The notes: generated from the letters alone by a model not told the origin. A stretch of 61,383 nt of DNA from Chloroflexota bacterium (GCA_005880615.1 VBID01000117.1:1-61383), one strand, 5' to 3'; counted from the first letter of the stretch, positions 404-60,882 are shown. Numbers and translations: made by a program.

Positions 404-417
404 GAGCCGAGTTTATA

Positions 418-1206
418 GTCCGGATCCACCGAGCGGACGAAGCAGATTGGGATGCGGGGCGTGCCGAGCCGAAGGGGGCGACGAGCACGTGAAGGAGCGC
501 ATCCGTCGATGCGTGACTAAGCGCGCGGAGGAGCCGACGCCCGGAGCCCGGGGCCGCCGGACGAACGAAGCAGATTGGGATGCGGGGCGTGCCGAGCCGC
601 AGGAGGCGACGAGCACGTGAAGGAGCGCATCCGTCAATGCGTGACTGAGCGCGCGGAGGAGACGACGCCCGGAGCCCGGGGCCGCCGGACGAACGAAGCA
701 GATTGGGATGCGGGGCGTGCCGAGCCGCAGGAGGCGACGAGCACGCGAGGGAGCGCATCCGTCGATGCGTGACTGAGCGCGCGCAGGAGCCGACGCCCGG
801 AGCCCGGGGCCGCCGGACGAACGAAGCAGATTGGGATGCGGGGCGTGCCGAGCCGCAGGAGGCGACGTGCACGCGAGGGAGCGCATCCGTCGATGCGTGA
901 CCGAGCGCGCGCAGGAGCCGACGCCCGGAGCCCGGGGCCGCCGGACGAACGAAGCAGATTGGGATGCGGGGCGTGCCGAGCCGCAGGAGGCGACGAGCAC
1001 GCGAGGGAGCGCATCCGTTGATGCGTGACCGAGCGCGCGCAGGAGACGACGCCCGGATCGGCCGCATCCGCGCCCAAGATGCGAGTTTGTGCCGGCGGCC
1101 TCGGGCTCAGGCCGCATCCGCGCCCAAGATGCGAGTTTGTGCCGGCGGCCTCGGGCTCAGGCCGCGTCCGCGCCCAGGATGCGAGTTCGTTTCGGTGGAT
1201 TCGGGC
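418..1206 (+). mobile_element. nested/tandemly amplified 177-bp MITE-like element (5 left arms of 128 bp, 3 right arms of 49-50 bp)
   Basis: 128-bp period with starts at 418, 546, 674, 802, 930; 50-bp period at 1061, 1111, 1161; outer IR GTCCGGATCCACCGA / TCGGTGGATTCGGGC; inner IR GCCCGGGGCCGCCGG / CCGGCGGCCTCGGGC; same family at 24673 and 31573. Confidence 0.85.
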
Positions 1207-3258
1207 TTACCCCGGCTGGTCGTCGACGCGACCGGTCAGGGTCGCCCGCAACAGGACGATGTATTCGGCGTGGGCCCAGACCAGGGGCCGGGCCGAGCCG
1301 GTCGGGGCTCCGGTCCCCTCCCAGACCTGCTCGGAGAGCAGCTGTTCCGGTCCCGCCCAGGCCTCGAGCTCCCGCACCAAGGGCGCCACGTCGTCACCGG
1401 CCAGCACGGCATACACCCCTCGCTCGCCTGAAAGCAGCGGCCACAGGTGCCCATGCCCGTCGGGCGGTCCGCCCAGTGTGCTCTCGCCGTAGCCATCGTG
1501 GGGGTACCGATACCACCCCGACCCGCTGCGGCTGTCGCCCCGGTCAACCGCATCCAGCACCGCCAGCGTGCTCCGGATCCGCGGGTCTGCCGGCGGCCGG
1601 ATGCCCAGCCGAACCAGCTCCAGGAAGCTGGGATCGACGATCAGCCGCTGATCGAAGGTGCCGCCCCCATTGGCGATGGTGAGCGGCTCATCCGCCGTGG
1701 GGTGGCCATCGGCGCTGATCCGCAGGTAATAGCCGCTGCCCAGGGGACCGCTGGTCACGTAGGTGAGGGCCTCCACTTGTGCATCCCACTGATCGGCCAC
1801 CGCCTGCCAGCGCGTCGCCTGGGCAGTCTGCTGCCCGGCTCGAGCCCATTGCGCGGCCGCCCGCAGGGCGGCGATCTCGGCCGCCATGGTGGCCGGCGAG
1901 TACCCGCTGTTCTCCTCCCAGCGCTCCTGCTCGGTGGAGGGGCCGCGGCGCAGCAGGTACTCCGCGGCAGCCGCGATGTCCGGCCCGCTCCCCGAGGCGA
2001 TCCGCGGGGCCAGGCGCACGGCCAGCAGGATGGCATCGGCGGTTTCGTCGAGCTGATCGCCCGTCCACTGCCGGCGGCCGTCCAGGTCCGTGTTCTGGGG
2101 CAGGCTGCCGTCCGCCAGCTGCTGGCTTCGCATGAAGTGGACCACATCCATGGCGGTCCGCTGGTCGCCGGCCGCCAGCAGACCGCTGGCCGCGTGGTAG
2201 AGGTCGCGCGGCCAGACCTTGCGGTAGCCGACATCCACCGGCGAGTCCAGAGTGGCGTTCCCCCAGGGAAGCGCGAGCGAGGCCACGATCGCGCCCGGTT
2301 GCTGCCGGTCCTCGGCGGCTTTGATGATCTCGGCGCTGTGGTAGTAGAGGGCAGTGGCCCGGCCGCCAAGCGAGTCGAGGCGGGCGGCATAGCGCAGCCA
2401 GCCGTCCCGATAGGCGGCGCCCACCGCTGCGAAGCCGGCCTTCAGGCTGTCCGTGACGCTGCCGTCGGCCTGCGCCTGGCTGCTGCCCATCCCTAACGCC
2501 ACCGTCCACTCACTGGCATTCGGCACCTCCCAGGTCAGCGTGATATGGCCGGGACCGGCGCGGTCATCCCGGTGCACGAGGTCGAAGTGGCGCAGCTCCT
2601 CGAACCCGTCGTTGACGCGCAGGTAGCCGGCCGTGTGTCGGGCCATCGTGGCCGTGCTTCCGACGGCCAGCCAGCGGTCGAGCCTGGATACGTAGGCGCG
2701 GTTCGGCGCGAACCAGCCGGTTTGCCCCCGTCCGCCATCGAGGAGATGCGGCACCAGGTACGCGTAAACGTGAAAACTGCGGGGCCCGATGTACTGGGTC
2801 TGCATGAGCACCACCGGCCGCGCCGGGTCGACGACAAATTCGGAGACCAGCACAAATCCATGGACCGGATCGGTCACGGTGGTCTGATACAGCAAGGCTC
2901 GGTCGTCGATGACCCGGCTGACCGCGAGGCCATCGCGCATGCTGTCGAAGAGGAAACTGGACCCGTCGGTGACCAGGTATCCGAACTGGCGCAGGTTGTC
3001 CTGGTCGACTCGGGGATAGAGGAGGTCAGCCAGGCCACCCCGGACCGCCGTGAACCAGAGGGGTGACGCCGGACTCTCCACTGCCGTACCGACGGCGACT
3101 TTGTCGCCGGTCGTCCAGACGTCCGCCGCGACCGAATGGCCGGGGGCGGTCGTGCCGGGCGACGGGGACAGGGGTGCCGTCAGCGCCAGGCTGACGACCC
3201 CCAGCCCCGCCAGCGCGCCTGTGCGTAGCAGCCCGAGCGGGTATCGACGCCGGCGCAT
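1207..3258 (-). CDS. secreted glucodextranase/glucoamylase-like glycoside hydrolase family 15
   Basis: Arg-rich signal peptide; Glucodextran_N-like start (KVAVGTA..SPLWFT..GGL.DL.YP); GH15 motifs WPRD, QERWEE, LSEQVW, PLVWAHAEY. Confidence 0.88.
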   Translation of the reverse strand: MRRRRYPLGLLRTGALAGLGVVSLALTAPLSPSPGTTAPGHSVAADVWTTGDKVAVGTAVESPASPLWFTAVRGGLADLLYPRVDQDNLRQFGYLVTDGSSFLFDSMRDGLAVSRVIDDRALLYQTTVTDPVHGFVLVSEFVVDPARPVVLMQTQYIGPRSFHVYAYLVPHLLDGGRGQTGWFAPNRAYVSRLDRWLAVGSTATMARHTAGYLRVNDGFEELRHFDLVHRDDRAGPGHITLTWEVPNASEWTVALGMGSSQAQADGSVTDSLKAGFAAVGAAYRDGWLRYAARLDSLGGRATALYYHSAEIIKAAEDRQQPGAIVASLALPWGNATLDSPVDVGYRKVWPRDLYHAASGLLAAGDQRTAMDVVHFMRSQQLADGSLPQNTDLDGRRQWTGDQLDETADAILLAVRLAPRIASGSGPDIAAAAEYLLRRGPSTEQERWEENSGYSPATMAAEIAALRAAAQWARAGQQTAQATRWQAVADQWDAQVEALTYVTSGPLGSGYYLRISADGHPTADEPLTIANGGGTFDQRLIVDPSFLELVRLGIRPPADPRIRSTLAVLDAVDRGDSRSGSGWYRYPHDGYGESTLGGPPDGHGHLWPLLSGERGVYAVLAGDDVAPLVRELEAWAGPEQLLSEQVWEGTGAPTGSARPLVWAHAEYIVLLRATLTGRVDDQPG

Positions 3259-3271
3259 CAAGCCACCGGTC

Positions 3272-24663: not shown

Positions 24664-24672
24664 CGCGCCTAA

Positions 24673-24849
24673 GCCCGAATCCACCGAGACAAACTCGCAG
24701 CTTGGGCGCGGATGCGAGCGATCCGCGCGTTGGCTCCTGCGCGCGTTCGGCCACGCATCGACGGATGCGCTTCCTCACGTGCTCGTCGCCGCCTTCGGCT
24801 CATCTCGCCCCGCATCCCAATCTGCTTCAGCCGTTCGGTGGATCCGGGC
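24673..24849 (-). mobile_element. 177-bp MITE-like element, single copy
   Basis: IRs GCCCGAATCCACCGA / TCGGTGGATCCGGGC, flanked by a TAA direct repeat; homologous to 418-1206 in reverse orientation. Confidence 0.88.
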
Positions 24850-24896
24850 TAAGGGTAGCGTTTGACCCTCTCTCCGGGCGGGACTACGATGTCGTC

Positions 24897-25781
24897 GTGC
24901 TCAAGGTCATCACGCCCAAAGAACTGGCTCGCAACCTCGATCCGATCCTGGCCGCCCTGGAAGAGAGCGGCTCTACCGTGATCATCAAGAAGGAGGATCT
25001 ACCGAGCGCCCTCCTGCTGCGCTTCGACGCCTACATGGCCATGCTGGCCACCATGGATTATTCCGGCTGGGAGCGTTGGGTGGAAGAGGTCCGGAGCGCA
25101 TTCCCGAGGGCAACCTTGAGTCCGCCCCGGCGGCCGAAGTCGCTGGTGCCGTCGTTCATCGATCCAGTGGACCTGGGATACGATCCGAAGTCGGGCCAGG
25201 TCGGGACGGAGGGCGGCCGCCGGCGGCTCGCCGACGAGCTCACCGAAATGGGCATCACCCTCGATGAGGCCGGCCTCAGCGCCGCGTACTCGCTCGTCCT
25301 CAACCTGGCCGAGCGCAAGCGCGTCCTGTACCCCGAAGACATCCGGCTCGCCGCCGACGAGGCCCAGGGTCGGACCACGCCCGGCCGCTACGCCCTGGAC
25401 GAGATCGACACCCACTTGCAGAGCGGCCTTCCGTGCACCGCTTCGGTGACGGTCCTGGTGGAGGGCACCCGCAAGAGTGCGAGGGCCTCCGGGGCCGGGC
25501 CGCTGGATGCCTGCTTCAAGGCAGTCCAGGAGGTCACCGGCATCGCCCCCGAGCTGGAAGACTTCAGCCTGGCGGCCGCCACCCGGGGCAGCGATGCCCT
25601 CGGCGAGGCGGTCGTCACCCTGAGCTTCGGCACCCAGGTGGTCGTGGGTCGGGCCGTTTCGGTGGACGTGGTGGAGGCCGGTGTGCGGGCGTACCTGAAC
25701 GCGCTCAACTGGCTGACACCCAGCCCGGCCGGCACCCATACCGCCGCCAGGGCAACTGAACCGAACCGATCGGCTGGCTAA
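24897..25781 (+). CDS. Phd/YefM-like N-terminal domain fused to a LeuA-type allosteric (regulatory) domain
   Basis: N-term MLKVITPKELARNLDPILAALEESGSTVIIKKEDLPSALLL; C-term GAGPLDACFKAV..LEDFSL.AAT.GSDALGEA..G.AVSVDVVEAGVRAYLNALN; TACGAT 6 nt before GTG. Confidence 0.75.
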   Translation: MLKVITPKELARNLDPILAALEESGSTVIIKKEDLPSALLLRFDAYMAMLATMDYSGWERWVEEVRSAFPRATLSPPRRPKSLVPSFIDPVDLGYDPKSGQVGTEGGRRRLADELTEMGITLDEAGLSAAYSLVLNLAERKRVLYPEDIRLAADEAQGRTTPGRYALDEIDTHLQSGLPCTASVTVLVEGTRKSARASGAGPLDACFKAVQEVTGIAPELEDFSLAAATRGSDALGEAVVTLSFGTQVVVGRAVSVDVVEAGVRAYLNALNWLTPSPAGTHTAARATEPNRSAG

Positions 25782-29145: not shown

Positions 29146-29646
29146 ATGCCGGCGAAGAAGAAGAAGTCCGCGAAGAAGGCGGCGCCCAAGAAAGCGTCCG
29201 CCCGGCGATCGGGGGGCAAGGCGAAGAAGACCACGGCCAAGCGCAGCACCGCCAGGAAGGCCACTGCCAAGAAGACCACCGCCAAGAAGAGCACGGCCAA
29301 GCGGCCGGCGAAGAAGACGACCGCCCGGCGACCGGCAGTCGCCAAGGCGGCCGCGCCCAAGGTGGCCGTCGCCGCTGCCACGCCGGCCTTCGTCGCCCCC
29401 AAGCCAGCTCCGGCTCCCGCACCGGCCGCGTTCCGGCCCGCACCGGCCCCGCCTCGGCCGGCTCCTGCACCCCGGCCGGCCGCCAGCCCGGCGCCGTCGC
29501 CAGCTCCTACCCAGCGGCCGGTGGCCCGACCCGCGGAATCCCCGTTTGGGAGTGAAAACGCGGGGTCGTTCCCCGGATCCGAACGGGTGAAGATCGGCGA
29601 GCGACCGCCCGAACAGACCTGGCCCGGCGGCGGCCAGAGCCGCTAG
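29146..29646 (+). CDS. histone H1-like Lys/Ala/Pro-rich protein
   Basis: MPAKKKKSAKK, repeated (T/S)TAKK units, PA-rich segment; SD AGGAGG upstream. Confidence 0.8.
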   Translation: MPAKKKKSAKKAAPKKASARRSGGKAKKTTAKRSTARKATAKKTTAKKSTAKRPAKKTTARRPAVAKAAAPKVAVAAATPAFVAPKPAPAPAPAAFRPAPAPPRPAPAPRPAASPAPSPAPTQRPVARPAESPFGSENAGSFPGSERVKIGERPPEQTWPGGGQSR

Positions 29647-30281: not shown

Positions 30282-30286
30282 GCTAA

Positions 30287-30333
30287 GCCCGAATCCACCC
30301 GAATCGAACTCGCATCTTGGGCGCGGGGCGGGC
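30287..30333 (-). mobile_element. internally deleted 47-bp copy of the MITE family
   Basis: TAA|GCCCGAATCCACC...CTCGCATCTTGGGCGCGG..CGGGC|TAA between convergent genes. Confidence 0.75.
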
Positions 30334-31454: not shown

Positions 31455-31519
31455 TGCGACTCCTTCAAGACGTGGGCAGGACCGGTATTGCGGTCCATCC
31501 TGTCGTGGCGCATGGCGAA

Positions 31520-31554
31520 AGTCAAGCAGGGCCCTGTGACAGCTGCCTGTCACG
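31520..31554 (-). promoter_or_regulatory. palindromic operator GTGACAG-N4-CTGTCAC located 10 bp upstream of a -10-like hexamer
   Basis: Identical 18-mer TGACAGCTGCCTGTCACG also at 40918-40935 with the same spacing. Confidence 0.7.
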
Positions 31555-31572
31555 GCCGAGGCCCAGATCAAA

Positions 31573-31749
31573 GCCCGGATCTACCGGTCGGGCGCCGCAG
31601 ATCGGGATGCGGGGCGTGCCGAGCCGCAGGAGGCGACGAGCACGGGAGGGAGCGTACCCGTCGGTGCGTGACCGAGCGAGCGCAGGAGACGACGCCCGGA
31701 TCGGCCGCATCCGCGCCCGAGATGCAAGCTCGATCCGGTAGATTCGGGC
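31573..31749 (+). mobile_element. 177-bp MITE-like element, single copy
   Basis: IRs GCCCGGATCTACCGG / CCGGTAGATTCGGGC; same length and core as the 24673 and 930-1106 copies. Confidence 0.88.
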
Positions 31750-31800
31750 TTAGCTTGGTTGCGGTTGGGTGCCGAATCCGGCATATTGGGGCTCAAGTAA

Positions 31801-33257: not shown

Positions 33258-33583
33258 TAGGGATTGGGTACGGCCGAAGGCCGAGGGGGGAGCGGCCGGT
33301 AGGCGCTGCGATCCACGCAGCGCCGGTGCGCAAGGGTCGCGTCTCGGGCCGGCGATGGCGGATCGCGGCCCAGACCGTCGAGGCCAAGGAGGCGACGAGC
33401 ACGCCAACGCGCCTATCCGTCGATAGGTAAGTGAGCGCGCGCAGGAGCCGACACCGGCACCGGCGGAAATGGGCCGATGAGACGCCAAGCAGGCCCCGGG
33501 ATGCGACCCTGGGGTCAAAAGAAGTAGCCGTGGCGGCTTTTGACCGCCCTCAACATCGGCCAGCTGGGGGGATCTGCCCCCTA
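33258..33583 (+). repeat. long imperfect hairpin element carrying a diverged copy of the MITE core (33387-33452)
   Basis: Core AGGAGGCGACGAGCACG..CCTATCCGTCGATAGG..GAGCGCGCGCAGGAGCCGAC enclosed by different IRs (AGGGTCGC/GCGACCCT; GCGTCTC/GAGACGC); outer limits approximate. Confidence 0.6.
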
Positions 33584-40591: not shown

Positions 40592-40894
40592 TCAGGAGTC
40601 GGCGCCGCCGGTAAGGACCCGAAGCATGGCTGTCCGCCGCGAGGGGCTGGAATAGTCGGGAGCTTGGCCGCGGCGGGCGGTGCGATAGGCCTGGGCAACC
40701 CGGGCTGCCGCCTGCTGCGCCGAGGCCACCAGATCTCCGGCCGCCGCGTCCGGCCCACTGAGACTTTCCGGCTCGAGGTCGACGAGCTCGCTGAGGCACA
40801 GCTGACGCTCGGGGTCGATCACCACGACCCCCACGAAGGCCGAGCGCGACTTGATGCTGGGATGGATCTGAGACCAGGGAATGACGTTGTCCAT
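40592..40894 (-). CDS. hypothetical protein (100 aa)
   Basis: TAGGCT 6 nt before ATG; preceded by the palindromic operator. Confidence 0.6.
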   Translation of the reverse strand: MDNVIPWSQIHPSIKSRSAFVGVVVIDPERQLCLSELVDLEPESLSGPDAAAGDLVASAQQAAARVAQAYRTARRGQAPDYSSPSRRTAMLRVLTGGADS

Positions 40895-40900
40895 ACCGAC

Positions 40901-40935
40901 AGCCTAGAAGGGGTCTTTGACAGCTGCCTGTCACG
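40901..40935 (-). promoter_or_regulatory. palindromic operator TGACAG-N4-CTGTCA plus N10 spacer and -10 (TAGGCT)
   Basis: Minus strand CGTGACAGGCAGCTGTCAA-N10-TAGGCT-N6-ATG; identical 18-mer at 31537. Confidence 0.72.
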
Positions 40936-41025
40936 ACCCCGGAACGCGTTTGGGTATCATGTTGGGCGCCCGCCGGCCGCCCCAGAGCCACTCAGGCGAT
41001 CCCCGGCGACGGCCCATTGCCACCA

Positions 41026-59340: not shown

Positions 59341-60882
59341 ATGGCGGACGAGGCCACCACGCCCGGCCGACGCTACGTCGAGGCCGTCATCAGCGGGGCC
59401 GCCCCCCTGCCGGCCTACCTCGCACTCCTCGGGATGCGCGTAACCGCGGCCGGGGATGGCACGGCGACCTACGAAATGCCGGTCACCGAGTCGCTCTACA
59501 ACCCCAACGACGTGGCCCATGGTGGCGCGCTGGCGTCGCTGCTGGACAGCGCCATGGGGTTCGCCGTGGTCACCACATTGGCATCCGGGGAAAACTTCAC
59601 CACGGTCGACCTGACCGTCAATTTCATCCGGCCGGTCACCGTCCAGTCCGGAATGCTGCGCTGCATCGGCCGGGTGGTTCACCGCGGCCGCCAGATCGCC
59701 GTTGCCGAGGCGGTCTGTACCGACGGCGCCGGTGAACTGATTGCCCGGGCTAGCTCCACCAACCTGGTGCTGGCCGGCACGCCGCCACAAACACAGCCGC
59801 AACCGCCGCTGCCCGCACCACCGCCCGCTCCTCCAATCGCGGCCCCCCCGGTCCCCGTCATGGCTCCACCGCCGCCGCCACCACCACCGCCGCCGCCGCC
59901 GCCGCCGCCACCGCCACCGCCACCACTACCACCACCTCCTCCTCCGGTGGCTGCCTTCGTGCCACAGCCGGCTGGGTTCGGCCCTCCGCCTTCACGGCTG
60001 GAACACGAGCGGATGGCGACCACGCCGGTGACTGAGTCGCAGCCGATCGCCCCCTCGGCATTTACGCAATCGAAATGGCGCGTGCGCCTCTTCGGGGGGG
60101 ACATGACGTACATCCGGCGGGGGCAGGGACCGCCGGTTGTGTTGCTCCACGGCATCCCGAGCTCGTCGTATCTCTGGCGCGACGTGATCGATCCGCTGAC
60201 GCACTACTTCGACGTGGTGGCTCCGGACCTACTGGGCTATGGTGACTCCGACAAACGGGTGGATGCGGACCTGTCGGTGGAAGCGCAGGAACGCTACGTG
60301 ATCGCCCTCATGGAATCGCTGGGAATCCAGCGGGCGCACCTGGTGGGTCATGACATCGGGGGCGGGATCGCGCAGCTGATCGCCGCCGACGAGCCCGCCC
60401 GGGTGGGCAAGCTGGTGCTCATCGACAGCATCATGGACGACAACTGGCCCATCCCGGAGATCGCCCGTCTTCACGACCCCTTCTGGGACCAGCGGATGGT
60501 CAGCGCCGACCTGCGCAAAGGCTTCGGTGAAGGCCTCCAGGCCGGCATCGTCACCCCCGGCCGGATCACCGCCGAGCTGCTGGACGAGTGGGTCCGCCCC
60601 TTCAGCGACCAGGCCGGCCGACGTGGATATCTCCGGGCCGCCCGCGCCCTCAACAACAAGGACCTGGTATCGCGGTCCAACGACATTCGCGAGATCCGGG
60701 TCCCGACCCTGATCCTCTGGGGCGCGAACGACAAGTTCCTGGAACGGGGCTGGGCCGAGAAGCTCCATCAGAAGCTGCAGAACAGCGTGGTCCAGATCAT
60801 CGACCCGGGCGGGCACTTCCTCCCGCTGGACCGGCCGGACGCGCTCGTCCCTCTCCTGCTCCAGTTCCTCACGCAGCCCTAG
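59341..60882 (+). CDS. PaaI hotdog thioesterase - polyproline linker - alpha/beta hydrolase fusion
   Basis: NP..VAHGG....LLD (PaaI); about P20-L-P6 linker; HGIP, GHDIGG (Asp nucleophile), GHF; TACAAT 8 nt before ATG. Confidence 0.85.
   Translation: MADEATTPGRRYVEAVISGAAPLPAYLALLGMRVTAAGDGTATYEMPVTESLYNPNDVAHGGALASLLDSAMGFAVVTTLASGENFTTVDLTVNFIRPVTVQSGMLRCIGRVVHRGRQIAVAEAVCTDGAGELIARASSTNLVLAGTPPQTQPQPPLPAPPPAPPIAAPPVPVMAPPPPPPPPPPPPPPPPPPPPLPPPPPPVAAFVPQPAGFGPPPSRLEHERMATTPVTESQPIAPSAFTQSKWRVRLFGGDMTYIRRGQGPPVVLLHGIPSSSYLWRDVIDPLTHYFDVVAPDLLGYGDSDKRVDADLSVEAQERYVIALMESLGIQRAHLVGHDIGGGIAQLIAADEPARVGKLVLIDSIMDDNWPIPEIARLHDPFWDQRMVSADLRKGFGEGLQAGIVTPGRITAELLDEWVRPFSDQAGRRGYLRAARALNNKDLVSRSNDIREIRVPTLILWGANDKFLERGWAEKLHQKLQNSVVQIIDPGGHFLPLDRPDALVPLLLQFLTQP

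Follow-up and report, generated by a model that had tools for sequence, protein, structure and literature searches.

The usual definition of bacterial MITE-like repeats rests on their ends, and they are seen as junk with incidental hairpins. ERIC and Correia repeats are bacterial MITE-like hairpin repeats, and BOX elements are laid out in modules. Elements of the IS200/IS605 type have a Y1 transposase, lack inverted ends and keep a fixed orientation relative to the lagging-strand template. Parts of two accounts (PMC10969869, PMC3049150) present ERIC (IRU) and Correia (CREE/NEMIS) as non-coding repeats of 100–200 nt, located between genes, with inverted ends and termini rich in A/T, a description that also fits the element reported here. 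As far as such partial accounts go, the likeness extends to the long hairpin formed when single-stranded, to presence that varies between strains, and to a position at gene ends with frequent co-transcription. Pneumococcal BOX elements are built of boxA-boxB(n)-boxC modules, according to a portion of Croucher et al. 2011 (PMC3049150). REPs, in the corresponding portion of another study (PMC3733652), are units of 20–40 nt, one end of which bears an unpaired GTAG or CGTC tag, and REPINs form long imperfect hairpins.

The window analysed here is a stretch of 61,383 nt, contig C232 of a draft genome (G000) of 3.59 Mb in 241 contigs with 66.7% G+C. A first-pass annotation had flagged positions 470–540 as a possible structured motif. 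Our results indicate that this stretch forms the conserved centre of a family of mobile MITE-like foldback repeats, small and non-coding, in uncultured soil bacteria, and that selection acts on the core in the form of a folded single strand, either RNA or DNA. What is new is that the conserved part is an internal, covarying and strand-specific structure, found across end families of poorly known soil lineages.

The flagged positions are the middle of the first core unit (459–555, + strand; 74.9 bits and E 1e-21 with the covariance model R1), which is the first of eight cores that R1 detects in the window. This unit belongs to a composite array at 417–1209 (+ strand), made up of repeat families D1–D3, in which an outer left arm is followed by five 128-nt units, each a left arm plus a core, and then by three tandem 50-nt right-arm units (1060–1209, + strand; family D3). 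Tandem Repeats Finder gives a period of 128 × 4.9 at 437–1057 and of 50 × 2.6 at 1060–1187. The second to fourth core units lie on the + strand at 587–683 (R1 72.1 bits), 715–811 (82.9 bits) and 843–939 (81.1 bits). The fifth and innermost, at 971–1067 (+ strand; 102.1 bits), is the top match of the genome and forms a complete element with the first right-arm unit. In the array, the inner arms differ from the outer ones by covarying changes (GGGGCCGCCGG with CCGGCGGCCTC). The last right-arm unit ends in GGGCTTA, and its TTA is the stop codon of a GH15 glucoamylase-like gene (1207–3261, − strand; Pfam Glucodextran_N and Glyco_hydro_15; end taken from rough gene calls).

The remaining copies in the window are dispersed. 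One full single copy (24672–24848, − strand; nhmmer model positions 1–177; R1 92.2 bits), with its core at 24712–24808, lies between divergently read genes, and the same site is occupied in the sister genome G001. Another (31572–31750, + strand; nhmmer; R1 90.5 bits) has AGCCCGG...CCGGGCT ends and a core at 31614–31710, and metagenome contigs with other flanks place the match boundaries at 31571/2 and 31750/1. The copy at 33334–33509 (+ strand; R1 85.3 bits) has the same core, at 33373–33469, within a second arm family, as seen in the alignment and the arm comparison; its arms resemble those of copies in three genomes of other genera (G005, G011 and G020), unlike those of the main family, and it matches the G020 element in BLAST. 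A lone right-arm fragment (30284–30326, − strand; BLAST 86% over 43 nt; nhmmer model positions 130–177) sits between two convergent genes. No gene consistently adjoins the copies; among the flanking proteins in the window, five have a Pfam match, and these five are unrelated. All sequences quoted in the first-pass annotation are present in the window. Its central stem variants were located as GCGCATC-CGTC-GATGCGT in the array (at about 497–514 in the first core unit) and, reverse-complemented, in the copy 24672–24848, as GCGTACC-CGTC-GGTGCGT at 31653–31670 and as GCCTATC-CGTC-GATAGGT at 33411–33428; the outer stem pairs CCACCGA/TCGGTGG, CTACCGG/CCGGTAG and CCGCCGG/CCGGCGG were found as well. 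The CGTC that these variants have in common is one among many loop sequences of the central hairpin.

In the whole draft genome, an iterated nhmmer search gave 114 hits, which fall into 76 loci and include 59 that are nearly full length, and R1, the covariance model that the first-pass annotation had suggested building, finds at least 83 cores. The element is thus a non-coding sequence of about 180 nt in many dispersed copies, as expected of a MITE. Terminal inverted repeats are present (AGCCCGGATCYACCG... pairs with ...CGGTRGATYCGGGCT), and the pairing of the arms spans their full 52–58 nt. Partial nhmmer hits break at model positions ~52–56 and ~127–130, and the element therefore acts as three modules, namely left arm, core and right arm. 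Arrays elsewhere in the genome likewise consist of repeated arm-plus-core units followed by repeated right arms, and arm pairs without a core occur too.

The 196-nt copy at 31565–31760 folds as one long rod, with an RNA folding energy of −113.5 kcal/mol against −85.4 ± 4.6 kcal/mol in 200 shuffles (z −6.2). In the element two paired arms of 52–58 nt flank a core of ~75 nt, which R1 matches over ~97 nt. The core has four short covarying helices, and between them lie constant purine-rich loops: AAGG, GACGA facing AGGA, a single A facing GAG, and a tandem G-A next to a G-U pair that is itself conserved. The arms have tandem G-A loops as well, of the form AGAU/AGAU. Covariation was scored for a hand-derived structure on an alignment (A1) of 71 distinct, diverse cores from many genomes, which were picked by a pattern fixing GACGAGCA, GTGA..GAR and GCAGGAG, so that invariance at these places is partly by construction. 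In A1, 86.9% of cells are paired compared with 73.1% in shuffles, and both sides have changed in 235 cells compared with 79. The covariation score is 0.344 against 0.134 when shuffled, none of 500 shuffles reaches it, and it is at most 0.076 when partners are slid by 1–3 columns. The earlier claim that the stems covary around fixed loops is therefore upheld.

Exchanges between base pairs are found in several of these helices. Pair 46–56 of the central hairpin is UA in 37 cores and CG in 33. In the 2-bp helix that adjoins the hairpin, pair 37–64 is CG in 37 and GC in 31, and pair 36–65 is GC in 55, AU in 5 and GU in 5. Pair 20–83, in the 3-bp helix before GACGA, is GC in 25, CG in 19 and AU in 10; pair 11–94 of the base stem is GC in 29, CG in 23 and UA in 10. 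RNAalifold found the same helices independently, except for the register of one invariant helix, and helix 31–33/71–73 is present only in one of two core variants, being unpaired in about 30 of the 71 cores. The tandem G-A (columns 38/40 with 62/63) abuts pair 41–61, which is G-U in 63 of the 71 cores, where the opposite strand would have A-C.

Two of the earlier structural statements need to be narrowed. The purine-rich strands had been called nearly invariant; this is true of the loops, but the three bases before GACGAGCAC vary, covarying with the bases just after AGGA on the 3' strand (A1 pairs 19–85, 20–83 and 21–82). The tandem G-A loops had been likened to kink-turns. A canonical kink-turn consists of a helix, a 3-nt bulge and then tandem sheared G-A pairs. 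The loops are indeed mostly GA/GA, with 133 of the 193 2×2 internal loops being of this kind in sense-strand folds of 47 arm-family representatives, but they are symmetric 2×2 loops, and in the A1 reading no 3-nt bulge was found directly before a GA. As for known families, a search of Rfam 15 was negative at gathering scores for the entire window, and also at E up to 10 for 31540–31780.

The two strands are not equivalent. In 90 of 106 elements the fold of the core-sense strand is the more stable one, the mean difference being 12 kcal/mol. For 31565–31760 the other strand reaches −102.6 kcal/mol with RNA energies, compared with the −113.5 of the sense strand, and with DNA energies the values are −58.0 (sense) and −54.6; the asymmetry is larger with RNA energies, and RNA fits at least as well as DNA. 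Among transition mismatches in the arms of 99 elements from other genomes, G-T outnumbers A-C by 251 to 122, G-T being in excess in 58 elements, in deficit in 24 and equal in 17. In the draft genome the counts are 154 and 45, from 45 non-identical copies that are related by descent. The usual deamination bias predicts the opposite excess and gives no account of the G-U surplus. At least one GA/GA loop is found in 45 of the 47 representatives (none in two, one in six, two in ten, three in 12, four in 14 and five in three), with about 2.8 tandem G-A loops per element, whereas in antisense-strand folds TC/TC is the commonest 2×2 loop (29 of 71). AGAU opposite AGAU gives A-U, G-A, A-G and U-A, and such mismatches therefore keep the sense helix stacked while weakening the antisense helix. 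The one-strand G-T bias that had been noticed in a few copies is confirmed, and covariation together with strand asymmetry bears out the proposal that selection acts on the fold of one defined strand.

The core is common to many arm sequences. BLAST of the element against 40 relatives gave matches in 15, and outside the genus mostly only positions ~45–135 match, at 75–89% identity; the arms of the other genomes differ strongly in sequence and yet, in the alignment, pair with each other. In a set of 112 elements the cores form one BLAST cluster of 111, the one left over being a false positive, compared with 48 clusters of 5' arms and 52 of 3' arms; a repeated count on 110 elements gave 47 arm clusters. 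Arm length is nonetheless constant at ~52–58 nt, and many arm sets have AGAU-type motifs in common and end in TAG/CAG...CTA. It had been argued that transposase-recognised inverted repeats do not covary so freely. This is a fair point, but complementarity of the arms alone is expected of any foldback transposon; the covariation in the core, the strand asymmetry and the occurrence of one core in about 47 arm sets are the stronger evidence.

An exact-pattern scan of one genome per species gave at least 114 loci. Among the matches listed, roughly one fifth are, from the reading of their sequences, chance matches in coding DNA of unrelated taxa; the true cores among them come from Chloroflexi/Chloroflexota, Limnocylindria, Dormibacterota, Eisenbacteria and a few others, these names being depositors' record titles for bins that can be wrong. 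R1 matches 12 of 151 genomes sampled across the phyla-level group, namely 8 of 15 others of the same class, three in one further family, and the draft genome itself. A plasmid collection gave no BLAST match to the 180-nt element. Three exact pattern matches in viral contigs were rejected as chance matches, R1 accepting none of them.

Comparison with sister genomes indicates that the element is mobile. The copy at 31572–31750 is absent from both G001 (contig C93) and G002 (contig C45), where its flanks are joined, G002 having eight other bases at the empty site. Of 40 distinct copies in these two genomes, 20 have both flanks at most 25 nt apart in G000 without the element, and for six G000 is filled at the same place. 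Two empty sites (L156 and L164) keep ~14 nt of one element end and look like deletions. In five orthologous pairs between G000 and G001 or G002 the divergence of the element is similar to that of its flanks; in a sixth (L186) the copies are in opposite orientation, which allows no comparison. At an operon junction of G020 a copy lies exactly between the stop codon TAG of one gene and the ATG of the next, with TAG on both sides. It is missing from all 11 relatives read and present in G005, of another genus, and this patchy presence implies recurrent insertion or loss. The copies that G005 and G020 share at this junction differ by two double changes and two changes to G-U; a reading of these as compensatory evolution in place was dropped, since the other 11 relatives lack the element. 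The comparison table for this junction includes three unpublished genomes, on which nothing here rests. With regard to the earlier suggestion of a mobile structured RNA, mobility is borne out by the empty sites; the folded strand may be RNA or DNA.

The orientation of the element is biased relative to GC skew in one genus. In the draft genome 44 of the 59 loci have the sense strand on the C-rich strand (Fisher p 4e-4), the skew being taken from flanks with repeats masked on draft contigs and serving as a proxy only. The bias is also seen with one locus per contig (25 of 32), and it stays with flanks of 10 kb or more, 5-kb flanks giving 31 of 49 (p 0.09). The sense strand runs against the local gene majority in 41 of the 59 loci. 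Independent insertions in G001 and G002, mapped onto contigs of G000, are on the C-rich strand in 18 of 23 cases (p 0.011). In a second genome with other arm families, G035, the bias was not reproduced (14 of 24, p 0.54). Such a bias can result from insertion coupled to replication, or from faster loss when the stronger hairpin is on the lagging-strand template. Its sign, with the sense strand on the C-rich strand, is opposite to what we take to be the rule for IS200/IS605.

Taken together, these data are best accommodated, in a tentative reading that falls just short of probable, by a mobile MITE-like element whose rod is a cis-acting structure for its own recognition and propagation. A putative protein would read the folded core and its loops in a single-stranded intermediate, and not the end sequences, and with recognition based on the fold the arms would therefore drift or be swapped freely as long as their pairing persists. 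We infer that the selected strand is the propagation intermediate, the core being what the protein reads, and we lean slightly towards single-stranded DNA because of the replication-linked bias.

It is possible, if rather unlikely, that the element is instead an ordinary MITE of a DDE transposase, derived from an IS630- or IS5-type element with a TA or TWA target, with the core as a passenger that spread recently and horizontally. The complementarity of the arms would then stem from a foldback origin and from two-ended transposase binding, and the asymmetry and skew bias would arise after insertion, through faster deletion of hairpins on the lagging-strand template. The junctions bear directly on this. 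They are untidy, with TAA, TTA, TAG or TCA common at both ends; in the comparison with empty sites one clean TCA/TTCA duplication was seen, at L163, several junctions combine TAA at one end with TTA at the other, and several lack a duplication or have a few replaced bases. Untidy junctions of this kind are therefore compatible with a DDE transposase of TA or TWA target, and the duplication at L163, the TAG on both sides of the G020 copy and the inverted-repeat ends, mostly flanked in the alignment by TAA, TTA, TAG or CTA, favour one; the many junctions without a clean duplication do not. Other arm families end in TAGTG...CACTA or CAGTG...CACTG, presumably Tc1/IS630-like ends, and the ~14-nt remnants at L156 and L164 fit palindrome instability.

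The element has the size, copy number, inverted ends and presence/absence polymorphism of a MITE; a partner insertion sequence was not found in the genomes searched, which are drafts, where insertion sequences often fail to assemble. IS630-type (DDE_3) and IS4/IS5-type (DDE_Tnp_1) genes do occur in G000, but none of the 10 transposase genes located there is bracketed by element ends (up to 4 mismatches per 16 nt tolerated). None of the transposase families is shared by all five copy-rich genomes. DDE_Tnp_4 was rejected as the mobiliser, being present in G001 only and without the ends of the element, and so were DDE_Tnp_1, DDE_3, TnpB and IS110, each of which is missing from at least one copy-rich genome. 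A recent spread, moreover, should have left the arms and ends no less conserved than the centre, yet about 47 arm clusters surround one core. Covariation in short core helices between fixed loops is left unexplained by the binding of ends, and C-to-T change on the G-rich, mostly antisense strand would be expected to give an excess of A-C on the sense strand, whereas the observed excess is of G-U.

Somewhat less likely again is that the rod is a structured RNA used by the host, co-transcribed at gene ends and operon junctions, with a core under host selection as a 3' stabiliser, as a processing site for RNase III or RNase E, or as a platform for an RNA-binding protein. RNAs that are bound by proteins typically have G-U pairs, tandem G-A loops and constant purine-rich loops, the difference in stability between strands is larger with RNA energies, and Correia and ERIC repeats are processed as RNA in the portions of the literature at hand (PMC10969869, PMC3049150). 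The position of the copies can be read in the same way, as, across 63 loci, 34 element ends are at most 8 nt from a called stop codon (stop codons and genes being placed by our own rough gene caller) and the G020 copy is a sense insertion exactly between an operon's stop codon and the next start codon. Stop codons are, however, among the few A/T-rich words at 67% G+C, and target choice plus survival may suffice to explain such positions. Orientation relative to neighbouring genes is random: copies that adjoin a stop codon are sense in 18 cases and antisense in 16, and those between genes of the same direction are sense in 14 and antisense in 18. Species of a single genus differ in half of the copies, so that single copies are dispensable, and two copies scanned have no terminator-like tail after the element. 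No RNA sequencing runs with the element were found on record; four other runs that match it consist of contigs of doubtful type, which cover the repeat alone, with many different flanks, and are uninformative about expression.

More speculative, and improbable in our judgement, is a form of structure-guided DNA movement not described before, in which an enzyme would recognise a single-stranded copy by its folded purine loops and place it into short A/T-rich words. The copy would be DNA, or RNA copied back, and its ends would hold no sequence information and be free to drift or be exchanged. Movement of this kind would explain the single core in about 47 arm sets and the untidy junctions, as well as the failure to find a matching insertion sequence and the link between orientation and replication. 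Very improbable is an independent family of small-RNA genes, each with its own promoter and multiplying as a repeat in the role of a guide, decoy or defence-related RNA, for despite the defined polarity, the many copies per genome and a conserved core exposing purine loops that resemble GGA and AGGAG, no sigma-70-like promoter was seen in or beside two copies scanned (promoters of this phylum may differ), the conserved unit ends at the base of the hairpin and not at promoter or terminator features, and no gene is a constant neighbour.

If the core is a binding platform, as the preferred reading of a cis-acting recognition structure would have it, it points to an unrecognised protein partner, which, if real, may be a structure-reading mobilising enzyme or a conserved host factor that binds RNA or single-stranded DNA. 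R1 offers a concrete sequence and structure model for the search for this partner, and the family is a natural test of per-strand hairpin stability against replication. The repeats also matter for annotation, as they break assemblies and sit on stop codons and operon junctions.

In the literature searched, no description was found of a conserved, covarying core common to many MITE end families, nor, supplements of repeat surveys apart, of this core family. SRP RNA, 6S, Y RNA, bridge RNA, retron msd, attC and single-strand origins were discarded, as they give no match or have their conserved parts elsewhere. With Tourist-like and IS630/Tc1-like MITEs the element has in common a small foldback structure and TAA/TTA/TAG or TA ends, often on stop codons; it is unlike them in that a clean duplication is found at a minority of the junctions read, and in that no partner insertion sequence has the same ends. 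The REP/REPIN-RAYT and IS200/IS605 systems, to judge from part of Di Nocera et al. 2013 (PMC3733652), resemble it in relying on a fold rather than on inverted ends and in being strand-specific, which is here proposed. Within the same limits of the source, orientation linked to replication is a further likeness, seen here as a skew proxy in one genus. REP/REPIN elements with a RAYT were nonetheless rejected, given that the unit is ~180 nt, that CGTC is merely one hairpin loop and that a search for Y1/HUH transposases (Y1_Tnp) gave nothing over cut-off in the five copy-rich genomes. Compared with PATE and IS200/IS605, no Y1 was found in these five genomes and inverted ends are present, and the skew bias, seen in one genus and not in G035, has the sign opposite to the IS200/IS605 rule.

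Like BOX, the element is modular, and the number of internal modules varies in tandem, with five arm-plus-core units and three right arms in the window. Unlike BOX, the element repeats no middle box, its tandem units being a 128-nt left arm with core and, apart from these, a 50-nt right arm; the host lineage is another, and no sequence similarity was seen. From ERIC and Correia, to which it has no sequence or Rfam relation, the element differs in being most conserved at its centre, which is common to about 47 unrelated arm sets, in having a rod with regular tandem G-A loops and a two- to threefold excess of G-U over A-C, and in an orientation that, in one genus, is biased with respect to GC skew.

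At one orthologous site (locus L186), the hairpin repeat is found in opposite orientations in the source genome (G000, contig C16:3617-3793) and in its sister genome G002 (contig C145). The difference reflects either separate insertions at a single hot spot or an inversion of the element through its own arms. A second dispersed repeat, of about 140 nt, occurs in G000 at C234:17560-17935, with further copies on contigs C151, C183, C226, C32, C178 and C16. Its position beside the hairpin element at three loci of the sister genomes G001 and G002 (L162, L167 and L176) suggests that the two repeats are nested or share insertion sites.

Within the window, a separate 57-nt repeat containing the palindrome GTGACAGCTGCCTGTCAC is present in two copies with 75% identity (31501-31557 and 40882-40938), the first of which lies immediately to the left of the full hairpin-repeat copy at 31572-31750. 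This repeat may be an operator or a further small repeat family. To the right of the copy at 24672-24848, the only match of the gene at 24888-25781 is to the LeuA allosteric dimerisation domain, and the frame as read contains no catalytic domain. Tandem repeats with units of 15 and 30 nt, AAGAAGACCACCGCC and variants of it, occupy positions 29161-29459 and are predicted to encode Lys/Ala/Thr-rich repeats resembling those of histone-H1-like tails, and a simple repeat of CCG/CCACCG extends over about 70 nt at 59866-59936.

Outside the window, an IS110-family transposase gene with a 388-aa frame (G000, C162:109208-110604) immediately adjoins a truncated copy of the hairpin repeat, which is broken off close to the boundary between arm and core. 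The insertion sequence appears to have integrated within the repeat, in the way that IS110/IS1111 elements insert into REP sequences.
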